From the NCBI GenBank assembly GCA_902775555.1, contig CACYMQ010000002.1, positions 42,794-106,793 on the forward strand: 64,000 nt of DNA, read 5' to 3'. Position numbers and translations under genes: made by a program. This stretch comes from an uncultured Lachnospiraceae bacterium. GTDB lineage: Bacteria > Bacillota > Clostridia > Lachnospirales > Lachnospiraceae. Shown here in pieces: positions 9,375 to 55,092 of this stretch (positions are counted from its first letter, which is position 1; the number at the start of each line of letters is the position of its first letter). The notes beneath the pieces were generated by a model that was given only the letters and a program-made list of their open reading frames with translations, searched no databases and had not been told where the DNA came from.

Positions 9375-10124
9375 TTACTGCGCATTCTTGTCAAATAATG
9401 TCTTATATTCTTCCTTCTTGATCTCCTGCAGCTTCAAAAACCGGTTGTAGCAATATCCGCTCTTCCCTTTATAGAGCACTTTGGACCACTCTTCCCCTTT
9501 TTCAAGCACACAGCCCACGGACCCCGGATATAATGCGACTACGGTCTTCGCCTTCCCGTTTGCCTCTTCCCGGATCCGGAGGGTGGTTCCCTGATTGGTT
9601 GTGACGAAGGAATAATAAGGTCCCGCAGCCGGCATTTGCACGACCGTCTTCCCGGAGGGATCCTCCGATGTCTTCTCCTCCGTTCCCTTCTCGCGGGTAT
9701 TCTTCTCCGTTACAGCCTCCGTCACCTTCTCCGGACCGGGTTCCACAGGCACTGCCACTGTCTCCGTGGTGCTTTCCGTTACTGTCTCCGACCCCTTCGT
9801 TCCGGGATCTGCCTTCGTTTCGGAGCGTGCCTCGGTGGGGAGATCGAGGATCGGTGCCGCCTTACCTTCCGTCGCAGCATCCGGCGCCGGCACATTGCCT
9901 CTTTCCGTACCCGTCTCCCCGAGCCGGTGCTGCACATCTTCCGTATCCGCTTCTATAATATCGATATAATCCTTCTCTGCGGTTTTCTCAACGGCAGCGT
10001 CCTTCTTACCCCGAAGTTCGAAGTAAGATTCCTTGCCGTCTAAAAGGAACAGGGCAAGGACTGCGGTGAACACATAGAACACCATGACCGCAGCAAGAAC
10101 ACGTTTTAACTTCTTTCTGCTCAT
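9375..10124 (-). CDS. Membrane-anchored SH3b-domain protein
   Basis: N-terminal TM (VLAAVMVFYVFTAVLALFLL), E/T/K/P-rich linker, C-terminal SH3b-like LRIREEANGKAKTVVALYPG…GEEWSKVLYKGKSGY. Confidence 0.85.
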   Translation of the reverse strand: MSRKKLKRVLAAVMVFYVFTAVLALFLLDGKESYFELRGKKDAAVEKTAEKDYIDIIEADTEDVQHRLGETGTERGNVPAPDAATEGKAAPILDLPTEARSETKADPGTKGSETVTESTTETVAVPVEPGPEKVTEAVTEKNTREKGTEEKTSEDPSGKTVVQMPAAGPYYSFVTTNQGTTLRIREEANGKAKTVVALYPGSVGCVLEKGEEWSKVLYKGKSGYCYNRFLKLQEIKKEEYKTLFDKNAQ

Positions 10125-11062
10125 GCTTTGCCTCCGGAGGGGATCTGTATATAGATTCCCATGCCATTTCCTGCTGTACTCTTTGCATAGATCGTTCCGC
10201 CATAATACTCAACGATCGCTCTTGCCTGGGCAAGCCCCAGTCCGTTACCGCTGATACGGTTGGAACCCTGATAATTCAGTTCAAAGATATATTTCGTCTC
10301 CTCCGTGGGAAGTCCTTCCCCGGTGTCCTTCAGCACGATAAAGATATCATCCCCGATGGTCGATATGGTGATGACCAGGGATCCGGCCCGGTTCATGTAC
10401 TTGATCGAATTATCAATGATATTCCGGAACAGGGTCAGGATCCTTCCCTGATCCGCCGTGACCAGAAGCGTATCCGTGGCGGAGGATACCGTGATATGCA
10501 GATTTGCCGCTTTTGCCTCCGCCAGCAGTGAATTCTTTGCCTGTTCGGCAACGGCTATGATATTTACGGTTTCTCTTCCGTCTCCGTCTCCCGTAACAGG
10601 AGGAAGAAGTGCACCGAAATCCTGTACCGGCTCACGTCTTTCCTTCTCACGCATATTTGCGATCTCCTGCTCCTTCTGCAGTTTCTCCTCCTCCAGCTTT
10701 CTAATCCTTGTCAGAAGATTGGAGGTCTCGTCCTTAAAGGATTCATTCTTATTTCGAAGACCTTCCACCTGCGCACGTATCTGTTCCAGCAGATTGTCCT
10801 TTTCCTTTACCTGCCCGGTCATCTCACGAAGCGCCTTATCCTTCTCGGCGATCTCGATCCCCACTTCCTGGTGATAGGTATTCAGGGACAGTGCCTTATC
10901 CACCTGATCCGAATAACAGATATAGCAAAAAGAGAAAAGGCACAGACTGTGAAGCACGAAAAATACAATGATGAATACCAGTGACAGGCAGAACATGCTG
11001 TAAATGGTGGCTGCAAAAAAGATGCAGGACCCGATCAAAAACAAGCGCTGTAATTTATACAT
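10121..11062 (-). CDS. Membrane-bound HATPase_c kinase-like protein lacking a HisKA H-box
   Basis: N-terminal TMs and coiled coil; N box NIIDNSIKY, G1 DTGEG, F box IFE, G2 GNGLGL. No His in a phospho-acceptor context. Confidence 0.82.
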   Translation of the reverse strand: MYKLQRLFLIGSCIFFAATIYSMFCLSLVFIIVFFVLHSLCLFSFCYICYSDQVDKALSLNTYHQEVGIEIAEKDKALREMTGQVKEKDNLLEQIRAQVEGLRNKNESFKDETSNLLTRIRKLEEEKLQKEQEIANMREKERREPVQDFGALLPPVTGDGDGRETVNIIAVAEQAKNSLLAEAKAANLHITVSSATDTLLVTADQGRILTLFRNIIDNSIKYMNRAGSLVITISTIGDDIFIVLKDTGEGLPTEETKYIFELNYQGSNRISGNGLGLAQARAIVEYYGGTIYAKSTAGNGMGIYIQIPSGGKA

Positions 11063-42508: not shown

Positions 42509-44338
42509 TTAGAATCCGCCATCTCCGGCAGATCCATCCCTCCCTGCAGGTTCACCGACCATCTTCTTTCTGACGATGGCATACGCATAAGTACAGATCA
42601 CCGGCATCTCCGTGCAATAGATCCGGATCTCATATACACCTTCCCTGGTGGGTGCGGTGTAAACTCCGTCGGAACTGATCTCGCCGCTTCCCGGTGAAGT
42701 CAGTTCATACGTGATGCCTGTCGCTTTCATATTGTTGAATCTTACACCAAAGAAATGACTTTCCTTCGTTCCCATGATGACCGTCGGAGTTGCAACGGAA
42801 ATGCTCTTGTCATAGTAATCTTCGGTGATCTCCATCTCATCTCCGGACGGGAAGCGGATCGCAACCCACCGGAAGGTAAGTGTCAGATAATCCACATCCT
42901 TCAGCAGCCGGACAGCCACTACAAAATTTCCTTTTTCATTTAGAACCTTGACTGCCGTTTCCACATCCGTCATCGGATCTCCCTTTCTGCTGAACAGATC
43001 CGGATTTCCGTAGAAGGTACACTTCTGGTTTGCGGCAAGTCCGGGATCGTCCGATACATAGGTATATCCAATGTCTACATATACATTTCCCATACCCAGG
43101 CCATGGGGGATCTCACCGGAATACCGGATATCTCCGGCTCTTGCATTCTTTCCGAGTGGAACCTCTACCGTGCCCGTAGCGATATTGGAGAATTCCGTCC
43201 GGGAACCTCCCTTACTCGAAGTCACCTGCTGCTGACCCTCTGTCCGTGCAGCGGTCAGATCCACTTCCTTTTTGAAGAAGGAAAGATACTGGTTTCGCAT
43301 CATCATCTGTGCCGGCGTCATGATGTAATTCTTAACTGTATCCTCGGTGATCGTATCGATCAGATAGTTATTTGACGTTCTGACGATCTTCAGATCCGCC
43401 AGAGGAACGGAATCGTCCAGAAGACCGATCCCCCGCATCTCCAGATTCACCTTGCCGGCTGCATTTCCGACCAGCTGCATCGGATCCAGCTTACTGAGGA
43501 TCACACGAAGGGTGAAGTTGGACGCTGTGCTTATGGCACTGTCATCCTCAAAAGCAAACCCCGTTCCGCTCCGTAGGATCAGTTCGGTTGCGATCGCCGG
43601 TGTATCCTGAACACGAACCCAATACTCCTTTTTCAGGGAATCTCCGAAGGCAAGCCTCAGGTTCTCAACACTGAATTCGATCTCATGCTCTCCGTCTGCT
43701 GTGACAAATGCCGGCATCTCCAGGACTCCCCGGCAGTTCAGCGAAACATCATTTCCGCTGAGCTTACGGATCTCAAGGACGATCTTGACATTTCCTCCCT
43801 TGCACACCGTGGAAGGCACCATGATCTCGCCAACGTAATTCTCGCTCTTAAACAAGGTCTCCTTCGTCAGGAATTCCGTTTCCGGGGAATAATCGGTCTC
43901 TACGGATTCCTTATCCGAAAGGAACAGCTCATAGCCTTCGGAAATACGGTTGAACTCGTATTCCTTCTCATCCTCCTTACGGTTCACGGAATATACGTTG
44001 TGGATCTCCTGCTCCTTAAAACGGATGCTGAGCCGCGCAACATCTCCCGTAAGCCGGTCAAAGCCCTCGATGGCGGACAGTTTCTTCACCGTGGTGGAAT
44101 CCACGATGATCTCCCTTCCCCGCCCGTCTATGGCGGAACCGCTCTCGATCAGGACCGATTGGTCATCCAATGAAAAAACACCCAGTCCGCAGATCACACC
44201 GGACCCGTACATAAGTCCGTTCATGAACCGCATCTTATTGATGTGATAGTCCTGTTCGGCCTGGAAATCAGCCGAGGTCAGCATCTTTCCCGGATAATAT
44301 CTGTTTCGTTCAAAAGGATAAAGCTTGTTATTGTTCAT
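42509..44338 (-). CDS. CIS-associated fibre/baseplate-attached-like protein (609 aa), first gene of the operon
   Basis: N-terminal ERNRYYPGKMLTSADFQAEQDY…GSGVICGLGV motif recalled from CIS-locus proteins; Ig-like C-terminus (GEISSDGVYTAP). Confidence 0.65.
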   Translation of the reverse strand: MNNNKLYPFERNRYYPGKMLTSADFQAEQDYHINKMRFMNGLMYGSGVICGLGVFSLDDQSVLIESGSAIDGRGREIIVDSTTVKKLSAIEGFDRLTGDVARLSIRFKEQEIHNVYSVNRKEDEKEYEFNRISEGYELFLSDKESVETDYSPETEFLTKETLFKSENYVGEIMVPSTVCKGGNVKIVLEIRKLSGNDVSLNCRGVLEMPAFVTADGEHEIEFSVENLRLAFGDSLKKEYWVRVQDTPAIATELILRSGTGFAFEDDSAISTASNFTLRVILSKLDPMQLVGNAAGKVNLEMRGIGLLDDSVPLADLKIVRTSNNYLIDTITEDTVKNYIMTPAQMMMRNQYLSFFKKEVDLTAARTEGQQQVTSSKGGSRTEFSNIATGTVEVPLGKNARAGDIRYSGEIPHGLGMGNVYVDIGYTYVSDDPGLAANQKCTFYGNPDLFSRKGDPMTDVETAVKVLNEKGNFVVAVRLLKDVDYLTLTFRWVAIRFPSGDEMEITEDYYDKSISVATPTVIMGTKESHFFGVRFNNMKATGITYELTSPGSGEISSDGVYTAPTREGVYEIRIYCTEMPVICTYAYAIVRKKMVGEPAGRDGSAGDGGF

Positions 44339-44392
44339 GATACCCTCTTCAATTCTTTCCTATAGATTTTTGATATACAAAACCCCAGTGTT

Positions 44393-44425
44393 ATTATAAC
44401 AAATGAAAGGACACAAAAAGGACAC
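44393..44425 (-). promoter_or_regulatory. CIS operon promoter: extended -10 (TGtTATAAT) with tandem 9-bp direct repeats over the -35 region
   Basis: TATAAT at 44398-44393 preceded by TG. GTGTCCTTT occurs twice (plus strand AAAGGACAC at 44406 and 44417, 11-bp period). No TTGACA-like -35. Confidence 0.7.
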
Positions 44426-44476
44426 TCAGGTGAAAGGGTCCGGGCCCGTCCGAAAGCCGGTTCAACGGGAGTTTTT

Positions 44477-45778
44477 TCATTCACCCTTTCCTGCCTGTTT
44501 CGGTATCCTGATCACTGCTTCCGTTCCATGACCCGGAGACGAACGGATCACCAGATCTCCCCCGCTGAGACGTCTCAGCCGTTCCTTTACATTTTTGAGA
44601 CCGATATGATCTGCGGATCCCTCCGGGGGATCCGGGAGTTCCATATCGAATCCCACCCCGTTATCCGTAATGGATACGATAAAATCCTGTTCGGTCTCTC
44701 TGGTGGTGATCGTAATGATCCCGCCGGAATCAAGCGGCATGATCCCGTGCCGGACGGCATTCTCCACCAATGGCTGCACCGTAAGGGCAGGCAGTGAAAA
44801 ATGTGTCACCGGCGTGACTATGGTATAGTTCAGTTCTTCGGGAAAGCGTATCTTCTCGATGGCCAGGTAGCTTTCCACAAGTTCCATCTCTCTCGAGAAT
44901 GGGATCGGAAATTTACTGTCGATCGCAGCCATGTTGCTTCTCAGATAATCCGAGAGATGCGAGATGGCATATCTGGCTTCATTCATATCCCTTCCGCAGA
45001 GGACATAAATGGAATTCAGTGCATTATAGAGGAAATGCGGCTTGATCTGGGAAAGTGCGATCCTGGTCTGCATCTCGCGGATCGTTTCTTCCTTTTCACT
45101 GATCAGGATCTCCTTCCCTTCAGACTTTTTTGTCTGAGTCAGAAGTTCCCTGACGAAGAGGATGATTGCCGCGACCATGCATATAATGTTGGTAAACGGA
45201 TAACCGTAGATCAGGATCTGGACAACGATCGCCACCACAGCTCCCCCCACTATGAACAGTATCGTCCACAACTTCTCCCGTATGGCAATGATGAGATAGG
45301 AAAGAACCAAAACGAACTGCAGCCCCATGGCCAGGATCATAAAAGATCCCCTCTGATAGACATTCCACTTATCGATGGTATAGAGGATCCCCGTGAACTG
45401 CGAGACGATGAGCAGGATCGTATCAAAGCCCGAGATCAGAAGGATCATCGGTTTCCACCAGTCGATATAATTCTTTCTTCTTTGCTTTGGGATAAATGTA
45501 CTGAGATACTGAAAGAAAGCACCACCGACCCAGAAACTGCCGAGAAGGGCTATGAAGTTTCCTGCGATCACCAGGATATGTGCCAAGTCCGAGCTTCCTC
45601 CCCGGAAAAAGTATGCGACGGAATCCGCGATCAGCATAAGCCCTGTGATAAGCTCCGGCCATACCCTCGCACGCCGGGAGTTCCCCGATCCTCCGGAAAA
45701 CCACAGGATAAAAGATGCCATAAGGAAGAAAAAGCCTCCCCACAGCTCAAATGCAGAGTAAAATAGTTCAATCTCCAC
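44477..45778 (-). CDS. LytS/YehU-type membrane sensor histidine kinase
   Basis: About 7 TMs; SQIKPHFLYNALNSI H-box; QPLVENAVRHG; DNGVGFD; IGLKNVKERL. Confidence 0.93.
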   Translation of the reverse strand: MEIELFYSAFELWGGFFFLMASFILWFSGGSGNSRRARVWPELITGLMLIADSVAYFFRGGSSDLAHILVIAGNFIALLGSFWVGGAFFQYLSTFIPKQRRKNYIDWWKPMILLISGFDTILLIVSQFTGILYTIDKWNVYQRGSFMILAMGLQFVLVLSYLIIAIREKLWTILFIVGGAVVAIVVQILIYGYPFTNIICMVAAIILFVRELLTQTKKSEGKEILISEKEETIREMQTRIALSQIKPHFLYNALNSIYVLCGRDMNEARYAISHLSDYLRSNMAAIDSKFPIPFSREMELVESYLAIEKIRFPEELNYTIVTPVTHFSLPALTVQPLVENAVRHGIMPLDSGGIITITTRETEQDFIVSITDNGVGFDMELPDPPEGSADHIGLKNVKERLRRLSGGDLVIRSSPGHGTEAVIRIPKQAGKGE

Positions 45779-46586
45779 TTTGATCCTCTCCTCCCCGGAG
45801 AAGTGAGGCTATCCGGTATTCTCCCCAGGTATACTGGGACATATACTCCCCATGAAACAGCTGCTCAACCCCCTTCATTCCCCTGTTATTCAGATAATCA
45901 TACAGATCGCAGTCGATCTCATCCTTCAGGATCCCAAGCTCCCCTCTGCCCCGCATGATGCAGTCCGGACATCCGGCTTCCTCCAGAACACTGATCAGAT
46001 CCCTCCGGATATTTTTCAGATAGGAGATATGCGAACTCTCCATATCATAATCCTCCCAAAGGTACTCAATGATCTCTGCGTTACTGCACATCACTCCCCG
46101 TCTGTCAATGAGCAGTGCAAGCAGTTCCTTCGTCTTCTGGTAATGAAACTGAAGCGGTCGTCCGTCCACAAACGCTTCAAACTTACCGAAGGTCCTGGCA
46201 TAAAGCCTTTTTGATCCGGTATCCTCCGGCGGATACCGCAAATGATCCAGTTCATACCGGATCTTCTCTGCATTGATCGGTTTCAGGATATATCCGCTGC
46301 ACCGCATGCCGATGGCATCGACCGCATATTCCGAAAAGCCTGTGGTATAGACCAGATTCAGCCGGGGATACAGTTTCAGCAGTTCATCACCGAGCGTCAG
46401 TCCGTTCATCCTTTTCATCTCAATATCACAGAATGCAACATCGATACTGTCCCGTTCCCTACAGAAAGCAAGTGTTTCCGCACCGTTCCGGAAGCCATGG
46501 ACCTCTGCCTCGGGTGCTGCAAGCGCAATCTCCGTCACAAGGCCTTCCAGAGCCAGTTTTTCATCATCAATTGCGATTATCGTCAT
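45768..46586 (-). CDS. Response regulator, REC plus SARP-like winged HTH/BTAD (COG3947-type)
   Basis: IDDE…FCDIEM…YILKP receiver domain; RTFGKFEAFVDG…KTKELLALL…LWED…IRRDL…DCDLYDYL output domain. Confidence 0.9.
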   Translation of the reverse strand: MTIIAIDDEKLALEGLVTEIALAAPEAEVHGFRNGAETLAFCRERDSIDVAFCDIEMKRMNGLTLGDELLKLYPRLNLVYTTGFSEYAVDAIGMRCSGYILKPINAEKIRYELDHLRYPPEDTGSKRLYARTFGKFEAFVDGRPLQFHYQKTKELLALLIDRRGVMCSNAEIIEYLWEDYDMESSHISYLKNIRRDLISVLEEAGCPDCIMRGRGELGILKDEIDCDLYDYLNNRGMKGVEQLFHGEYMSQYTWGEYRIASLLRGGEDQSGD

Positions 46587-46610: not shown

Positions 46611-48848
46611 TCAATCGTCATCCGATCCTTCCGATCCTTCCGGCTCTCTGTCCTTCCTTCTTTCGCCGGAAGCAAACAGCAGGATGGCAATGGGCAGGAT
46701 GCCGATCAGTGATATGATAAGGATCCAGAGCTTCCCGCCGCTTTTCGGCGTATTGGCATATTCATCCGTGATGCTGTCATTTACGTCCGAGATGACAGGG
46801 GCACTTTCAGGCTCCATATTCTCGGAAGGCTGAACAAGAAGCAGATAATCCGTAGCTTCCGGGATCGTAAAGGACGCATATCCCAGATCACTGATCTGCT
46901 TCGCCTGCTGATGCTTCAGACGGTTTTCATTTTCCACATAATAGTAGAGGTTCGCATATTTTCCGGCATTTTCCTTCCCGAGCTTCAGATCCATCTCCGT
47001 GAAAAGGGAATTTCCCTCCCTGTTCTCGACGGAAAAGATCTCCCGGGGATAGACACCCGCAAGTTCATTGACAAGTCCCGCCGGGATCCTGCTTTCATCA
47101 CGAAGGATCCCCAGATCCACGTCCTCCGATACGTCGGTAAGTGTCAGTCCGCGGATCACCCAGATATACGTATCATCCATGATAAGATGAAGCGCGATAT
47201 CCTTTCCGGCGATCCTGGCAAGTACATCTCCCGGGATCCGGACTCCGCCGTTCATATCGATATACATATCCGATGGTTCCGGTGTCTTTGAAAGGACCAG
47301 GCCGATATCATTCCAGCCTGCGATCTTGTCGATCCCGGAATAATCTCTCTCAGCGGAAGCCACGATGTACGGGATCCTGTCCACCGCAGTACTCTGCTTC
47401 ACCGGATCGGTCAGCGACACTCCTTCCGTACGCTTGGCAACATTGCTGTTCCCTCCGGGCTTCATGGTGGAATCCGGGTCGGTACGTACGGAGGAAGCCT
47501 CCACCTCCCCTTCGGTTGCCAGATTTCCGCTTTTTACCGGTGACAGATTTCCTGCTTTATCCTCCACCACCGCATAGAGATCATATCTGGACCGTTTCGT
47601 CAGACCGTTGATGGTAAAGATCCCGTCATCCGACGGCATTCCCAGTCTCCTGACATCCTCCGGTTCCACGCCTGTAAGCTCCAGCTGGTCACGTACCAGC
47701 AGATAGTATTTCGAGATCCCGCTTTCCTCATCACTCCCTGTCACGGTGACGGAAGCACCGGTCTCATCTGCTTTCGCATCGATACTCATAGCCAGGGGAA
47801 GGGTCTCATCCTCCCAGATCCCCCGTGTTGCGATATATGTTTCACTGCCGTCCGATGCGGTGATCTTTACATAGATATAATTCAGCATGTTCCGGACGAG
47901 GCCCGGCTTCGAACCCGGCTCATATGCGGACCATTTGCTGATGTTCACCTGAGAGGCTCCTGCAGAAGTATTGACATCCTGTGCCTCGGTGGCCAGTGTC
48001 TCGATCAGTCCTTCCGAACTGAGGAATCTGTCCGCTATGATATATTCGATGCTCTTTACATCCTGTTCCTTCCCTGTATTGATCGTAATGGTCTCGGACT
48101 GATTTGTATAATCATCGATCTCATCCTTCGTCTGAAGCGACAGATAGACATGTCCCATGACCTCGATCCCCCGGGATCCCAGTGCTGCCCCCCGGCGTTT
48201 GATCACTTCACTCAGATTTCCGTTCTTATCCTCAGCCACCGCATAGAATACATATTCCACATCCGCAGTCAGCGGAGCCATGGACAGATATCCGTCCCTC
48301 GACCCGGTCCCCTCCTTTTTTACTTCGGAGGAAGAAGGTTCCTTCTGATCGGCTTCGCGTACCAGCAGATAATACATGCTGACATCACTGCCGCCGCTGA
48401 TGATCACGGTGGACGATTGATCCGTAAGCTTCACGGTATCGATCGAGAGCGGCTCCGAAGATGCTGCATCGATCCCGATCCCGGAGGAACCTTTTCCGGT
48501 ATTCTTTGTTCCTCCTGTCCCGGACGTCCCTGTTCCCGTGGTTCCCGCAGCACCTGTTCCTGCAGTCCCTGTTCCACCGGTCCCTGCAGCACCGGTTCCT
48601 GCAGTCCCCGTTCCACCGGTCCCTGCAGCACCGGTTCCTGTTCCGGGATCGCCGGTACTTCCGGCACTTCGGGTCTGTCCGCGATATGGCTGTATACCTC
48701 CGGCCGCAGCCACATCCGTTTTCCATAGATTCATGCATGCAAAGAAGACGAGCAGCAGAACCATACATCTGCCCGTCATATCAATCTGTCCGGATTGCTT
48801 CTTCGGCCGGGTTTTATTCTCTTGGGAACCAACACCCCATATTCTCAT
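46611..48848 (-). CDS. Membrane-anchored surface protein with G/T/A repeats and FN3-like modules (start may be ATG 48779)
   Basis: Signal-like MVLLLVFFACMNLW; two similar YYLL…Y..YAV.ED..GNLS modules; C-terminal TM followed by RRK. Confidence 0.8.
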   Translation of the reverse strand: MRIWGVGSQENKTRPKKQSGQIDMTGRCMVLLLVFFACMNLWKTDVAAAGGIQPYRGQTRSAGSTGDPGTGTGAAGTGGTGTAGTGAAGTGGTGTAGTGAAGTTGTGTSGTGGTKNTGKGSSGIGIDAASSEPLSIDTVKLTDQSSTVIISGGSDVSMYYLLVREADQKEPSSSEVKKEGTGSRDGYLSMAPLTADVEYVFYAVAEDKNGNLSEVIKRRGAALGSRGIEVMGHVYLSLQTKDEIDDYTNQSETITINTGKEQDVKSIEYIIADRFLSSEGLIETLATEAQDVNTSAGASQVNISKWSAYEPGSKPGLVRNMLNYIYVKITASDGSETYIATRGIWEDETLPLAMSIDAKADETGASVTVTGSDEESGISKYYLLVRDQLELTGVEPEDVRRLGMPSDDGIFTINGLTKRSRYDLYAVVEDKAGNLSPVKSGNLATEGEVEASSVRTDPDSTMKPGGNSNVAKRTEGVSLTDPVKQSTAVDRIPYIVASAERDYSGIDKIAGWNDIGLVLSKTPEPSDMYIDMNGGVRIPGDVLARIAGKDIALHLIMDDTYIWVIRGLTLTDVSEDVDLGILRDESRIPAGLVNELAGVYPREIFSVENREGNSLFTEMDLKLGKENAGKYANLYYYVENENRLKHQQAKQISDLGYASFTIPEATDYLLLVQPSENMEPESAPVISDVNDSITDEYANTPKSGGKLWILIISLIGILPIAILLFASGERRKDREPEGSEGSDDD
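48522..48638 (-). repeat. 39-bp tandem repeat x3 (GTGAAGTGGTGTA peptide)
   Basis: Units at 48600-48638, 48561-48599 and 48522-48560 (last one diverged). Confidence 0.9.
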
Positions 48849-48895: not shown

Positions 48896-48924
48896 ATTAT
48901 ATCACAATTATGTCAACAACGCAA
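48896..48924 (-). promoter_or_regulatory. sigmaA-type promoter for the surface protein-RR-HK operon
   Basis: TTGCGT-N17-TATAAT with an extended TG motif. Confidence 0.6.
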
Positions 48925-48981
48925 AGCCTTCCGCTCCATCACTTCGTTATCACCCCGCAGGCTTTCCGGGTGGTCCGCTGC

Positions 48982-49013
48982 AAAAAAAAGGAAGCCCCGT
49001 TTTCGGGGCCTCC
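48982..49013 (-). terminator. Intrinsic terminator
   Basis: GGAGGCCCCG-AAAA-CGGGGCTTCC followed by T8, downstream of the 49035 stop. Confidence 0.9.
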
Positions 49014-53080: not shown

Positions 53081-53350
53081 TCAGTCCACCTTCTCAAACC
53101 GGTATTCCTGCTTTGCTTCCGGGTATTTCGAATGATCCACGTGGCTCATAAACATGGAATAAGGTCGTACGTACATCTTGAAATCACCGTAAAGAGCCTG
53201 GTATACCACCATCAGCTCCTTGGTTTCGGAATGTTCGGCGATCCCTACGATCTTATAGAGATACATATTCGCCTTTGCATCCTCCTCCGAGATCATATTT
53301 CTTTTAAAATGCTGTACGATATCACCTGCATGGAGTCTTCTGTCACTCAT
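53081..53350 (-). CDS. DUF1653 domain protein
   Basis: GDIVQHFK…[25 protein letters not shown]…[14 protein letters not shown]…YRF. Confidence 0.9.
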
Positions 53351-55092
53351 GATTCCCTCCCGTCCTTTTCCTGATCTTTACCTTTATCTTCCTTTGCATC
53401 CGGCTCTGTCTCCTGTCCCTTTCCCGGTGCAGTCTCCTGTTCTTTCTCCGATGTGGTCTCCTGTTCCTTCTCCGGTGCGGTCTCCTGCTCCTTCTCCGGA
53501 ATGTCGGAATACAGAAGATATGCACTCTTCTCATGGGTATGCTTGATCCTGTAAAGTGCCTGATCGGCCAGCTTCAGCAGATTATCCAGGTCTGCCGTAT
53601 CCTGGGGGTACCGCGCCACGCCGATACTTGCGGAGATGACAAATGTATGCTCCTGTTCTCCCTTATCTTCCGTGATCACCCGTGCATCGATCGGCTCATC
53701 CATGCGTCCGGCGATAAGGCGGCCCACATTTTCAATGGCCTGCCTGTTGGATGCATTCCGGAAGATCACCAGGAATTCATCCCCGCCCACACGTATTGCC
53801 GTGCATCGGTCCTGTCCCAGATGTGCCAGCCGGTTTCCGACCTCCTTCAGAACCACATCTCCCATGTCATGCCCGTAATTGTCATTGATCGGCTTAAAGT
53901 AATTCAGATCCAGCGAGTAAAGAGCGATGGGATAATTCTCCGCATCCTGGATGAGCTTTGACAGATGCTCCATACCGTAACGCCGGTTATACAGTCCGGT
54001 CAGTACGTCCGTATTGGAGATCTTCTCCAGATGCGCATTCATTTCACGAAGCTCCCGGGTCTTCTCTTCCACCATCTGTTCCAGGCGGAAATTCTCATTC
54101 TTCTGCTGTTCGATCAGTTCTTCGGAAAGCATATTCGTCAGCAGCGTCTTGCACATAATGACATAGGCCATCGCCACGATGATAAAGACGAATACATCCT
54201 GACCATCGAATACCTTAAGAAAATACAGGACCAGCGAAACGAGAACGAGCGCAATGGCAATTCCCCAGTATCTCTTTCCGAAATTCCTTCTGGTGAAGCT
54301 CTGGGGATTATCCAGGCGGTGATCCTGTTCCAGATCGACCTTATGCAGCTTTCCGAAAGAAAGACCCAGCGCAAATAGAACTATGAACAGGATATACAGG
54401 ATATCCAGAAGCACGCTTTCCGATTCCTTTCCGATCAGCTTCATGGCTGTGTAACGGATCTCCAGTGCATTATTCAGGAGCAATACTCCCCCTATCAGAT
54501 AAAAGGCCTTTGCATGCCTCCGAAGCCCGGAATTCAGGATCACCAGGAATATCAGGAAGAGCGTGAAGATACAGACGAAGAAATAAAGGATCGTATTCAG
54601 ATTGTCGAAGTTGATCTTATACTCCGGATTTGCATACTCAAAGGCCGACTGGGAAAGTACGAAAGCCACGATGGACAGCACAAAGGTGTCGATCATCAGA
54701 AGCGACAGATCATTCTTTCTGAACCGAATGGAGGCATAGGCAAAAAGCCCGCCCACATAGATATAATCCGGGATCAGATAGATATTGTCCGTGATCGTCG
54801 CAATGATCTCATTTTCCGGCGTAAGATAAGATTGTACCAGCCACATCAGATCACCGAGAAACCACACAAAGATCGCCATCATGAACCAAATGGCAACCAC
54901 GCGGTATTTTCCCATATAATCCAGGGATTTGTAGATCAGAAATGATGATAGAAATGTCACCACGGGACTGGTGAAGTTGTATACCACATCCCATTCCAGA
55001 AGTGTTGACACAGCAAACAGAACCCAACCCACTATGATGATTGAGGCGATGATACGATGGATCCGATTCTGTTCTTTATCATAATAACTCAT
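53347..55092 (-). CDS. Multi-TM diguanylate cyclase (GGDEF)
   Basis: [10 protein letters not shown]; [18 protein letters not shown]; RVGGDEF; SASIG; AD.ALY. About 9 TMs. Confidence 0.93.
53408..53500 (-). repeat. 24-bp tandem repeat x~4 (PEKEQETA)
   Basis: Units start at 53408, 53432, 53456 and 53480. Confidence 0.9.

Follow-up and report, generated by a model that had tools for sequence, protein, structure and literature searches.

The binding of a winged-helix dimer to direct repeats in place of a -35 element is a textbook principle of gene regulation, as in PhoB, which binds the pho box in tandem, head to tail, on two 11-bp direct repeats that replace the -35 element. To our knowledge, the trigger of contractile injection systems (CIS) in Gram-positive gut or rumen commensals is not known. 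SARP regulators recognise direct repeats at 11 or 22 bp, with 8 bp between their 3' repeat and the -10 element, and AfsR occupies the afs box of the Streptomyces coelicolor afsS promoter from -40 to -19, overlapping a poor -35 element, as a side-by-side dimer in contact with both sigma region 4 and the core polymerase (PMC10936776). Beside extracellular CIS, the parts of Geller et al. (2021) drawn on here describe GerE/LuxR regulators, occasionally with a histidine kinase, and the RfaH-like AnfA1; in those parts, BTAD is a 'shell' domain of CIS loci, and gene neighbourhood is treated with no operators defined (PMC8213781). Here, we analysed a 64,000-nucleotide stretch of DNA from an uncultured rumen Lachnospiraceae bacterium (GCA_902775555.1, contig CACYMQ010000002.1; the whole stretch is called the window, and positions are numbered within it), in which a pair of 9-bp direct repeats stands between the genes of a two-component system (TCS) and a CIS fibre gene. 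Comparative analysis suggested, with a probability that we put at about 0.68, that a response regulator encoded 1.3 kb upstream has its operator in the two GTGTCC(TTT) repeats and would activate the fibre gene and the genes that follow it.

All genes around the site lie on the minus strand. On this strand, GTGTCCTTT is present twice, as a distal copy (DR1, 44425-44417) and a proximal copy (DR2, 44414-44406), with a start-to-start period of 11 bp. The two copies are separated by TT, and the second is followed by CATT and then by a perfect extended -10 element, TGtTATAAT (44393-44401, hexamer 44398-44393), DR2 beginning 16 nt before the hexamer. The site sits in a gap of 138 bp that separates the kinase stop (44477) from the start codon of the 609-aa fibre gene (44338) and reads ...cctgaGTGTCCTTTttGTGTCCTTTcattTGtTATAATaacacTGGGG...AGAGGGtatcATG on the minus strand. 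With transcription predicted to start at 44386, 7 nt after the -10 element and judged from its position, DR1 and DR2 would cover about -39 to -31 and about -28 to -20, respectively, and the 22-bp box formed by both would span -39 to -18. None of the hexamers at the -35 position (CTTTTT, CCTTTT, and TCCTTT, with 16-18 bp spacers) resembles TTGACA. The original prediction had placed a perfect 9-bp repeat, twice at an 11-bp period, at 44406-44425 and over the -35 position of an extended -10 promoter with no consensus -35, and the minus-strand coordinates and the hexamers confirmed both statements.

A 9-mer repeated at an 11-bp period is, on its own, only mildly unusual: exact repeats of this kind occur 2 times in the window vs. 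0.21 expected, and at least one was present in 41 of 200 shuffles. The significance of the pair derives from its register relative to a perfect -10 element in a short intergenic gap, from its uniqueness in the genome, and from its conservation. The GTGTCCTTT pair is the sole such site in the 3.0-Mb genome, even when three mismatches or degenerate cores are allowed, and a genome-wide search for further sites returned none with a -10 element.

A homologue of the fibre gene was found in 10 of 61 related genomes. In three congeners (G011, G016, and G019), whose fibre proteins are 79-82% identical, the 745-aa gene is likewise followed by the regulator, the kinase, and the fibre gene, in this order, and GTGTC(C/T)..GTGTCC and TGaTATAAT are retained. 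Alignment of the intergenic DNA of these three showed that GAGTGTC(C/T)TTTTTGTGTCCAT(T/C)GCTTTGATATAAT is kept, and the congener sequence from the kinase stop up to the repeats either could not be aligned or is absent. In a fourth congener, G024, the 745-aa gene directly adjoins the fibre gene, and regulator, kinase, repeats, and -10 element are all absent. Conservation of the motif upstream of homologous loci, which the original prediction had named as a way to check it, was found both in the three congeners and in more distant loci. A separate hexamer, TGGGGT (44382-44387), lies around the predicted start; it is kept in the window and in the three promoter-keeping congeners and is not found in distant loci.

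Further loci were picked by regulator homology only (80 genome loci, 832 kb), most of them without CIS genes. Five more of these carry a CIS fibre gene beside the TCS (L024, L028, L032, L076, and L099). In L024, L028, and L032, whose regulators are 63-49% identical, the repeats are GTGTC(T/C) or GTATCC; in L076 and L099 (regulator 45% identical, kinase-regulator order), they are GTGACT-N5-GTGACC. The promoters of L076 and L099 have neither a -35 element nor a TG extension, and they should therefore need an activator. In addition, a second half-site class, GTTGGA(A/C), occurs as a pair with an 11-bp period, at 16 nt from TAnnnT, before homologous fibre genes in L151 (3740-4000), L123, L130, L131, L135, L144, and L147. 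L151, which carries GTTGGACA twice, is the sole locus of this class with an adjacent regulator (35% identical, same family). The 11-bp period is shared by L151 and the five loci above, and in all of them TAnnnT begins 16 nt downstream of the point where the second repeat starts. Two GTG(T/A)C(C/T) repeats with an 11-bp period, the proximal one starting 16 nt before the -10 element, are retained at about 15 more distant loci. Alignment of 22 sites showed that G1, T2, C5, T11, G12, T13, G14, and C16 are invariant together with the TA...T of the -10 element; across these sites, the core is GTG(T/A)C(C/T), the distance of 16 nt from the proximal repeat to the -10 element is constant, the TG of the -10 element is frequent, and the proximal repeat is conserved better than the distal one.

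The association between site and regulator was also evaluated in 80 metagenome loci picked by fibre-gene homology only and classed by script; a locus was counted if its upstream flank reached 1 kb or if a TCS was detected. The site was present at 12 of the 13 fibre loci with an adjacent TCS and absent from one (L114), and it was present at 9 and absent from 40 of the 49 loci without an adjacent TCS (Fisher p = 1.5e-6, a value not corrected for relatedness). In the 80 regulator loci, the pattern GTGWC-N6-GTGWC-N10-12-TAnnnT occurred 14 times, vs. 0.1 in shuffles and 0 in reversed sequence, and all 14 sites lie within about 2 kb of TCS genes, most directly beside one. Outside CIS loci, the pattern precedes an OmpR-family regulator gene in L031, L033, L035, and L036 (in a divergent arrangement, about 190 bp upstream of the regulator), a possible cascade; it also precedes the regulator's own gene in L038 (5647), which may be read as autoregulation, a CPBP/Rce1-like membrane protease in L055 (8633 and 5885), and large surface-type proteins at some non-CIS regulator loci. 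Hence, the design is a feature of the regulator family and not of the injection system.

The response regulator (272 aa; 45768-46586, minus strand) consists of a receiver domain (REC), a winged helix, and a short BTAD-like stub, and is of the 'SAPR' family (COG3947 type). The REC domain was matched at E 1.9e-15 and Trans_reg_C weakly (E 0.0044); among 42 relatives, Trans_reg_C was matched in 38 (best 2.4e-6) and Pfam BTAD in none. A full-length model (pLDDT 89.9) gave OmpR/PhoB regulators as its best Foldseek matches. Because the receiver domain made these regulators dominate the whole-protein search, the output domain was modelled alone (151 residues; pLDDT 86, pTM 0.83). In Foldseek, this model matched AfsR (8HVR and 8K60) with E about 5e-6 over 161 columns and EmbR with a TM score of 0.75 over 164 columns; TM scores against AfsR and EmbR ranged from 0.68 to 0.75, and the alignment covers the entire domain, compared with only ~86 columns and E >= 0.01 for PhoB/OmpR-type domains. 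In a sequence-only profile search of PDB, SARP and OmpR domains were inseparable (E 0.03-0.04 for both). After the wing, the models show only 2-3 short helices, a BTAD-like stub of ~45 residues in which the family's best-conserved motif, CDxYDY...GEYMSQYSW, is located; the first BTAD helices thus appear to be present in a BTAD that appears truncated, not full. Based on these fold and domain matches, we regard the regulator as a receiver fused to a predicted mini-SARP (winged helix plus the first BTA helices). Moreover, the REC residues D7/D8, D54, and K102 are intact, and by sequence the receiver is nearest to LytR/BtsR/AraC- and YesN-type receivers, a likeness that fits the PF06580 domain of the partner kinase.

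The regulator has abundant homologues, in Lachnospiraceae as well as in other Clostridia (379 clusters at E <= 1e-10; at least 565 genome loci). Four of them, at 47-67% identity, bear the JGI label 'two-component SAPR family response regulator', which we take to be tied to COG3947 (REC, winged helix-turn-helix [wHTH], and BTAD response regulators); a literature search on SAPR/COG3947 regulators found no functional study. The genome encodes seven further full-length paralogues (32-40% identical; contigs C23, C3, C49, C14, C13, C21, and C35), six of which have a PF06580-type kinase match no more than about 1 kb away. Beside these seven paralogues, no GTGTC-type sites and no convincing repeats at an 11-bp period were found.

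The sensor histidine kinase (433 aa; 44477-45778, minus strand) carries PF06580 His_kinase and HATPase_c domains, and its GTG start overlaps the regulator stop. Its N-terminal half appears to contain about 6-7 membrane helices with short loops, as read by eye from hydrophobicity, and its H-box PHFLYNALNSI is intact. In the domain search, 5TMR-LYT and GAF were not detected; the kinase is LytS-like in its H-box domain only (LytS/YesM class). Of the REC-wHTH/BTAD regulator first proposed, the REC and the winged helix are present and a stub appears to stand in place of a full BTAD, and the LytS-type label proposed for the kinase holds for its PF06580 and HATPase_c H-box class and not for a 5TMR-LYT sensor.

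These features are consistent with the following mechanism. The multi-pass membrane kinase, which has no sizeable extracellular domain, would sense a membrane or envelope signal and phosphorylate the regulator at Asp54. The phosphorylated regulator would then bind as a head-to-tail dimer, with one winged helix per 11-bp repeat, from about -39 to -18. In this position, it could stand in for the absent -35 contact, in the way of SARP and PhoB-type activators, and recruit RNA polymerase to the extended -10 element, and transcription of the CIS13-like fibre gene and of the tightly packed genes behind it would rise. The earlier proposal of a TCS operator that works in the SARP/OmpR manner is strongly favoured by comparative genomics, in which conservation, the joint loss in G024, both survey counts, the afs-box geometry, and the predicted fold all point to it.

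Several observations weigh against this explanation. The loci are phylogenetically related, so the Fisher p overstates their independence. L114 (2940-3030) has a 62% identical regulator and a kinase beside the fibre gene, and no recognisable GTGTC repeats precede its TGaTATAAT. On the regulator tree, loci of one half-site class show no significant clustering, and the recognition-helix differences between GTGTC and GTGAC loci (H-[IV]-S-Y-L-K-N vs. variants) are only suggestive. Moreover, nine fibre-gene loci have the site without an adjacent TCS, indicating that adjacency is not obligatory. These nine loci give some room to the idea that the repeats are bound by another factor, or form a promoter element unrelated to the neighbouring TCS whose adjacency is coincidental, the more so as other signalling genes lie upstream in two of them (Hpt, REC, and HD-GYP-like genes in L117, 51-3825; GGDEF-EAL in L178, 89-3805). 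We consider this highly improbable, since the site accompanies nearly every adjacent TCS among the metagenome fibre loci, the pattern stands beside TCS genes far above the shuffled level even in loci picked by regulator and mostly devoid of CIS genes, and G024 lost the site together with the TCS. That the pair is a functionless chance repeat in T-rich intergenic DNA is less credible still: although repeats of this length and period are not very rare in 64 kb, loci with protein identities of only 45-65% have the core, the period, and the distance to the -10 element in common, and the site is absent where the TCS is absent, so that conservation effectively refutes chance. The sign of regulation must also be weighed, because an extended -10 element can fire without a -35 element and a protein at -39 to -18 could then also repress. 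The regulator might bind the repeats as proposed and block a constitutive promoter until a signal removes the dimer; TGnTATAAT promoters can work without a -35 element, and the TG extension is found in most of the 22 sites. Repression is nevertheless unlikely, as the repeats are placed and oriented like the sites of SARP and PhoB-type activators, the fold is matched by that of AfsR, an activator, and the promoters of L076 and L099 would be very weak unaided. Activation is therefore the sign that we favour, from the position, the fold, and these two loci.

How far the activated transcription would reach depends on the transcription units around the site. The 609-aa gene directly downstream (42509-44338, minus strand) encodes a protein with a CIS13 (tail-fibre) family N-terminal domain, which matched NCBIfam NF053767 over residues 8-156 (E 6.4e-27, 94.8 bits, below the 370-bit curated cut-off) and had no Pfam match. 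Because the match is confined to the N-terminal ~150 residues, the protein has a CIS13-type attachment domain and a different distal part. Five genes of unclear function closely follow. The CIS core genes form one cluster on the same strand as the site (6675-33315), which from 33315 down encodes Pvc16_N, DUF4280/PAAR-like, sheath, tube, two CIS_tube proteins, a VgrG-like spike, gp25, Baseplate_J, Tail_P2_I, and an AAA ATPase; the locus is a genuine contractile injection system cluster. In the interior of the cluster, a 313-aa HATPase_c protein (10121-11062) and then an SH3-domain protein (9375-10124) are encoded. The promoter lies at the fibre-gene end, about 11 kb upstream of where the genes for sheath, tube, and baseplate start. 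The term 'CIS promoter' in the original prediction thus suits the next gene, with its CIS13-like N-terminus, and does not extend to those distant structural genes.

On the upstream side, the first gene of the unit (46611-48848, minus strand) encodes the 745-aa protein, which has no assigned function and, in the species without the TCS, still adjoins the fibre gene. The preceding unit ends in a strong intrinsic terminator (49013-48990, minus strand; 10-pair stem, 8 GC pairs, T8 tail), after which a candidate sigma-A-type promoter read from the sequence, TTGCGT-17 nt-TGaTATAAT (48924-48896, minus strand), should drive the 745-aa gene, the regulator, and the kinase. As for a terminator between the kinase and the site, the sole hairpin (44432-44476) folds no better than shuffles (z = +1.18) and is missing in congeners, and it was rejected; with no convincing terminator there, read-through from the upstream unit is likely. 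Since the upstream unit has its own promoter and no convincing terminator precedes the site, the element probably acts as an internal boost that depends on a signal, and not as the cluster's sole promoter. This organisation suggests an internal, signal-dependent promoter for the fibre gene and some number of downstream genes. On a narrower account, the promoter would serve the fibre gene and a few accessory genes, and transcription of the CIS structural genes would start mainly at internal promoters or at the one that precedes the 745-aa gene. We hold this to be a possibility of some substance, though not the one we would bet on; it draws on the good promoter and preceding terminator at 48896-49013, on the shuffle-like hairpin, on the fibre gene of G024, which follows the 745-aa gene without a promoter of such type, and on the wider gaps further down the cluster (83, 289, 231, 346, and 327 bp). 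Against it, the genes from 44338 to 33345 overlap or stand 8-29 bp apart, and no convincing terminator was found in the minus-strand intergenic DNA from 44338 to 28000. The narrower account is compatible with activation of the fibre gene by the regulator and limits only its scope. By the same evidence (the separate upstream promoter, no terminator between kinase and site, and the gaps of 83-346 bp), the claim that the TCS activates the whole CIS operon goes further than the data allow.

The gap itself contains other sequence features. The ribosome-binding site of the 609-aa gene, AGAGGG (44343-44348, minus strand), is kept in four congeners. A candidate third repeat, GACCCTTTCA (44440-44431), shares CCTTTCA and was rejected, as it lies 16 bp from DR1, not 11 or 22. 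On the plus strand, a promoter-like TTGATA-16-TATTAT with TG (44370-44397) overlaps the -10 element and points antisense into the kinase gene; this match is not conserved in congeners and was set aside. In the leader, no known RNA element was found, a single Rfam match being at chance level. Elsewhere in the window, a GGDEF protein is encoded at 53347-55092.

If regulated as proposed, the locus is a concrete candidate for a CIS switch that consists of a 22-bp operator, one regulator, and one intramembrane-type kinase. It also yields a candidate motif for the Clostridia receiver-SARP family, a pair of GTG(T/A)C(C/T) copies at 11 bp, the second of them placed 16 nt before the -10 element, which could serve regulon prediction and the design of inducible promoters for Lachnospiraceae. 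The type of switch is itself ordinary; the useful new part is the operator prediction for a regulator family for which no functional study was found. More tentatively, the kinase, the REC-mini-SARP regulator, and the -35-less promoter with two 11-bp repeats may constitute a portable Clostridia cassette, coupled to the CIS fibre gene by at least three regulator lineages; the three proposed are those with GTGTC sites and regulator-kinase order, with GTGAC sites and kinase-regulator order, and with GTTGGA sites. Such a cassette, if real, would imply strong selection for control of machine production or re-targeting by an intramembrane or envelope signal, and would provide the first DNA-recognition code for a response-regulator family of >500 members.

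In comparison with known systems, the locus resembles SARP targets, and the afs box of AfsR in particular, in its 11-bp period, in the first 8 bp of DR2 ending 8 bp before TATAAT, in a box that overlaps the -35 position and spacer and is centred near -29, and in a proximal repeat that is better conserved. The predicted fold of the output domain, a winged helix with the start of a BTA domain, is likewise similar to that of AfsR (8HVR and 8K60) and of M. tuberculosis EmbR (2FEZ). In contrast to SARPs, the regulator has only a BTAD stub and would be controlled through an N-terminal receiver and its partner kinase instead of through NOD/TPR domains or Ser/Thr phosphorylation; moreover, a strong extended -10 element is present, in a Firmicute host, and the target is a CIS, not an antibiotic cluster. 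With OmpR/PhoB regulators, it shares a receiver and a winged helix, PhoB (1GXP) being among the fold matches, whereas the partner kinase is of PF06580 type and not HisKA (PF00512), the receiver is LytR/BtsR/YesN-like, and the output domain is predicted to be closer to SARPs and carries the conserved C-terminal extension CDxYDY...GEYMSQYSW. The PF06580 and HATPase_c kinase, the multi-pass membrane sensor, and the receiver type are those of LytSR/YesMN systems, which differ in that no 5TMR-LYT or GAF domain was detected here and that a winged helix takes the place of a LytTR or AraC output domain. Finally, as at the loci described in the parts of Geller et al. (2021) cited above, a regulator, there sometimes with a kinase, is encoded beside the CIS operon; here, it is a REC-mini-SARP with a PF06580 kinase, in rumen and gut Lachnospiraceae, and comes with a candidate operator of fixed geometry (PMC8213781).

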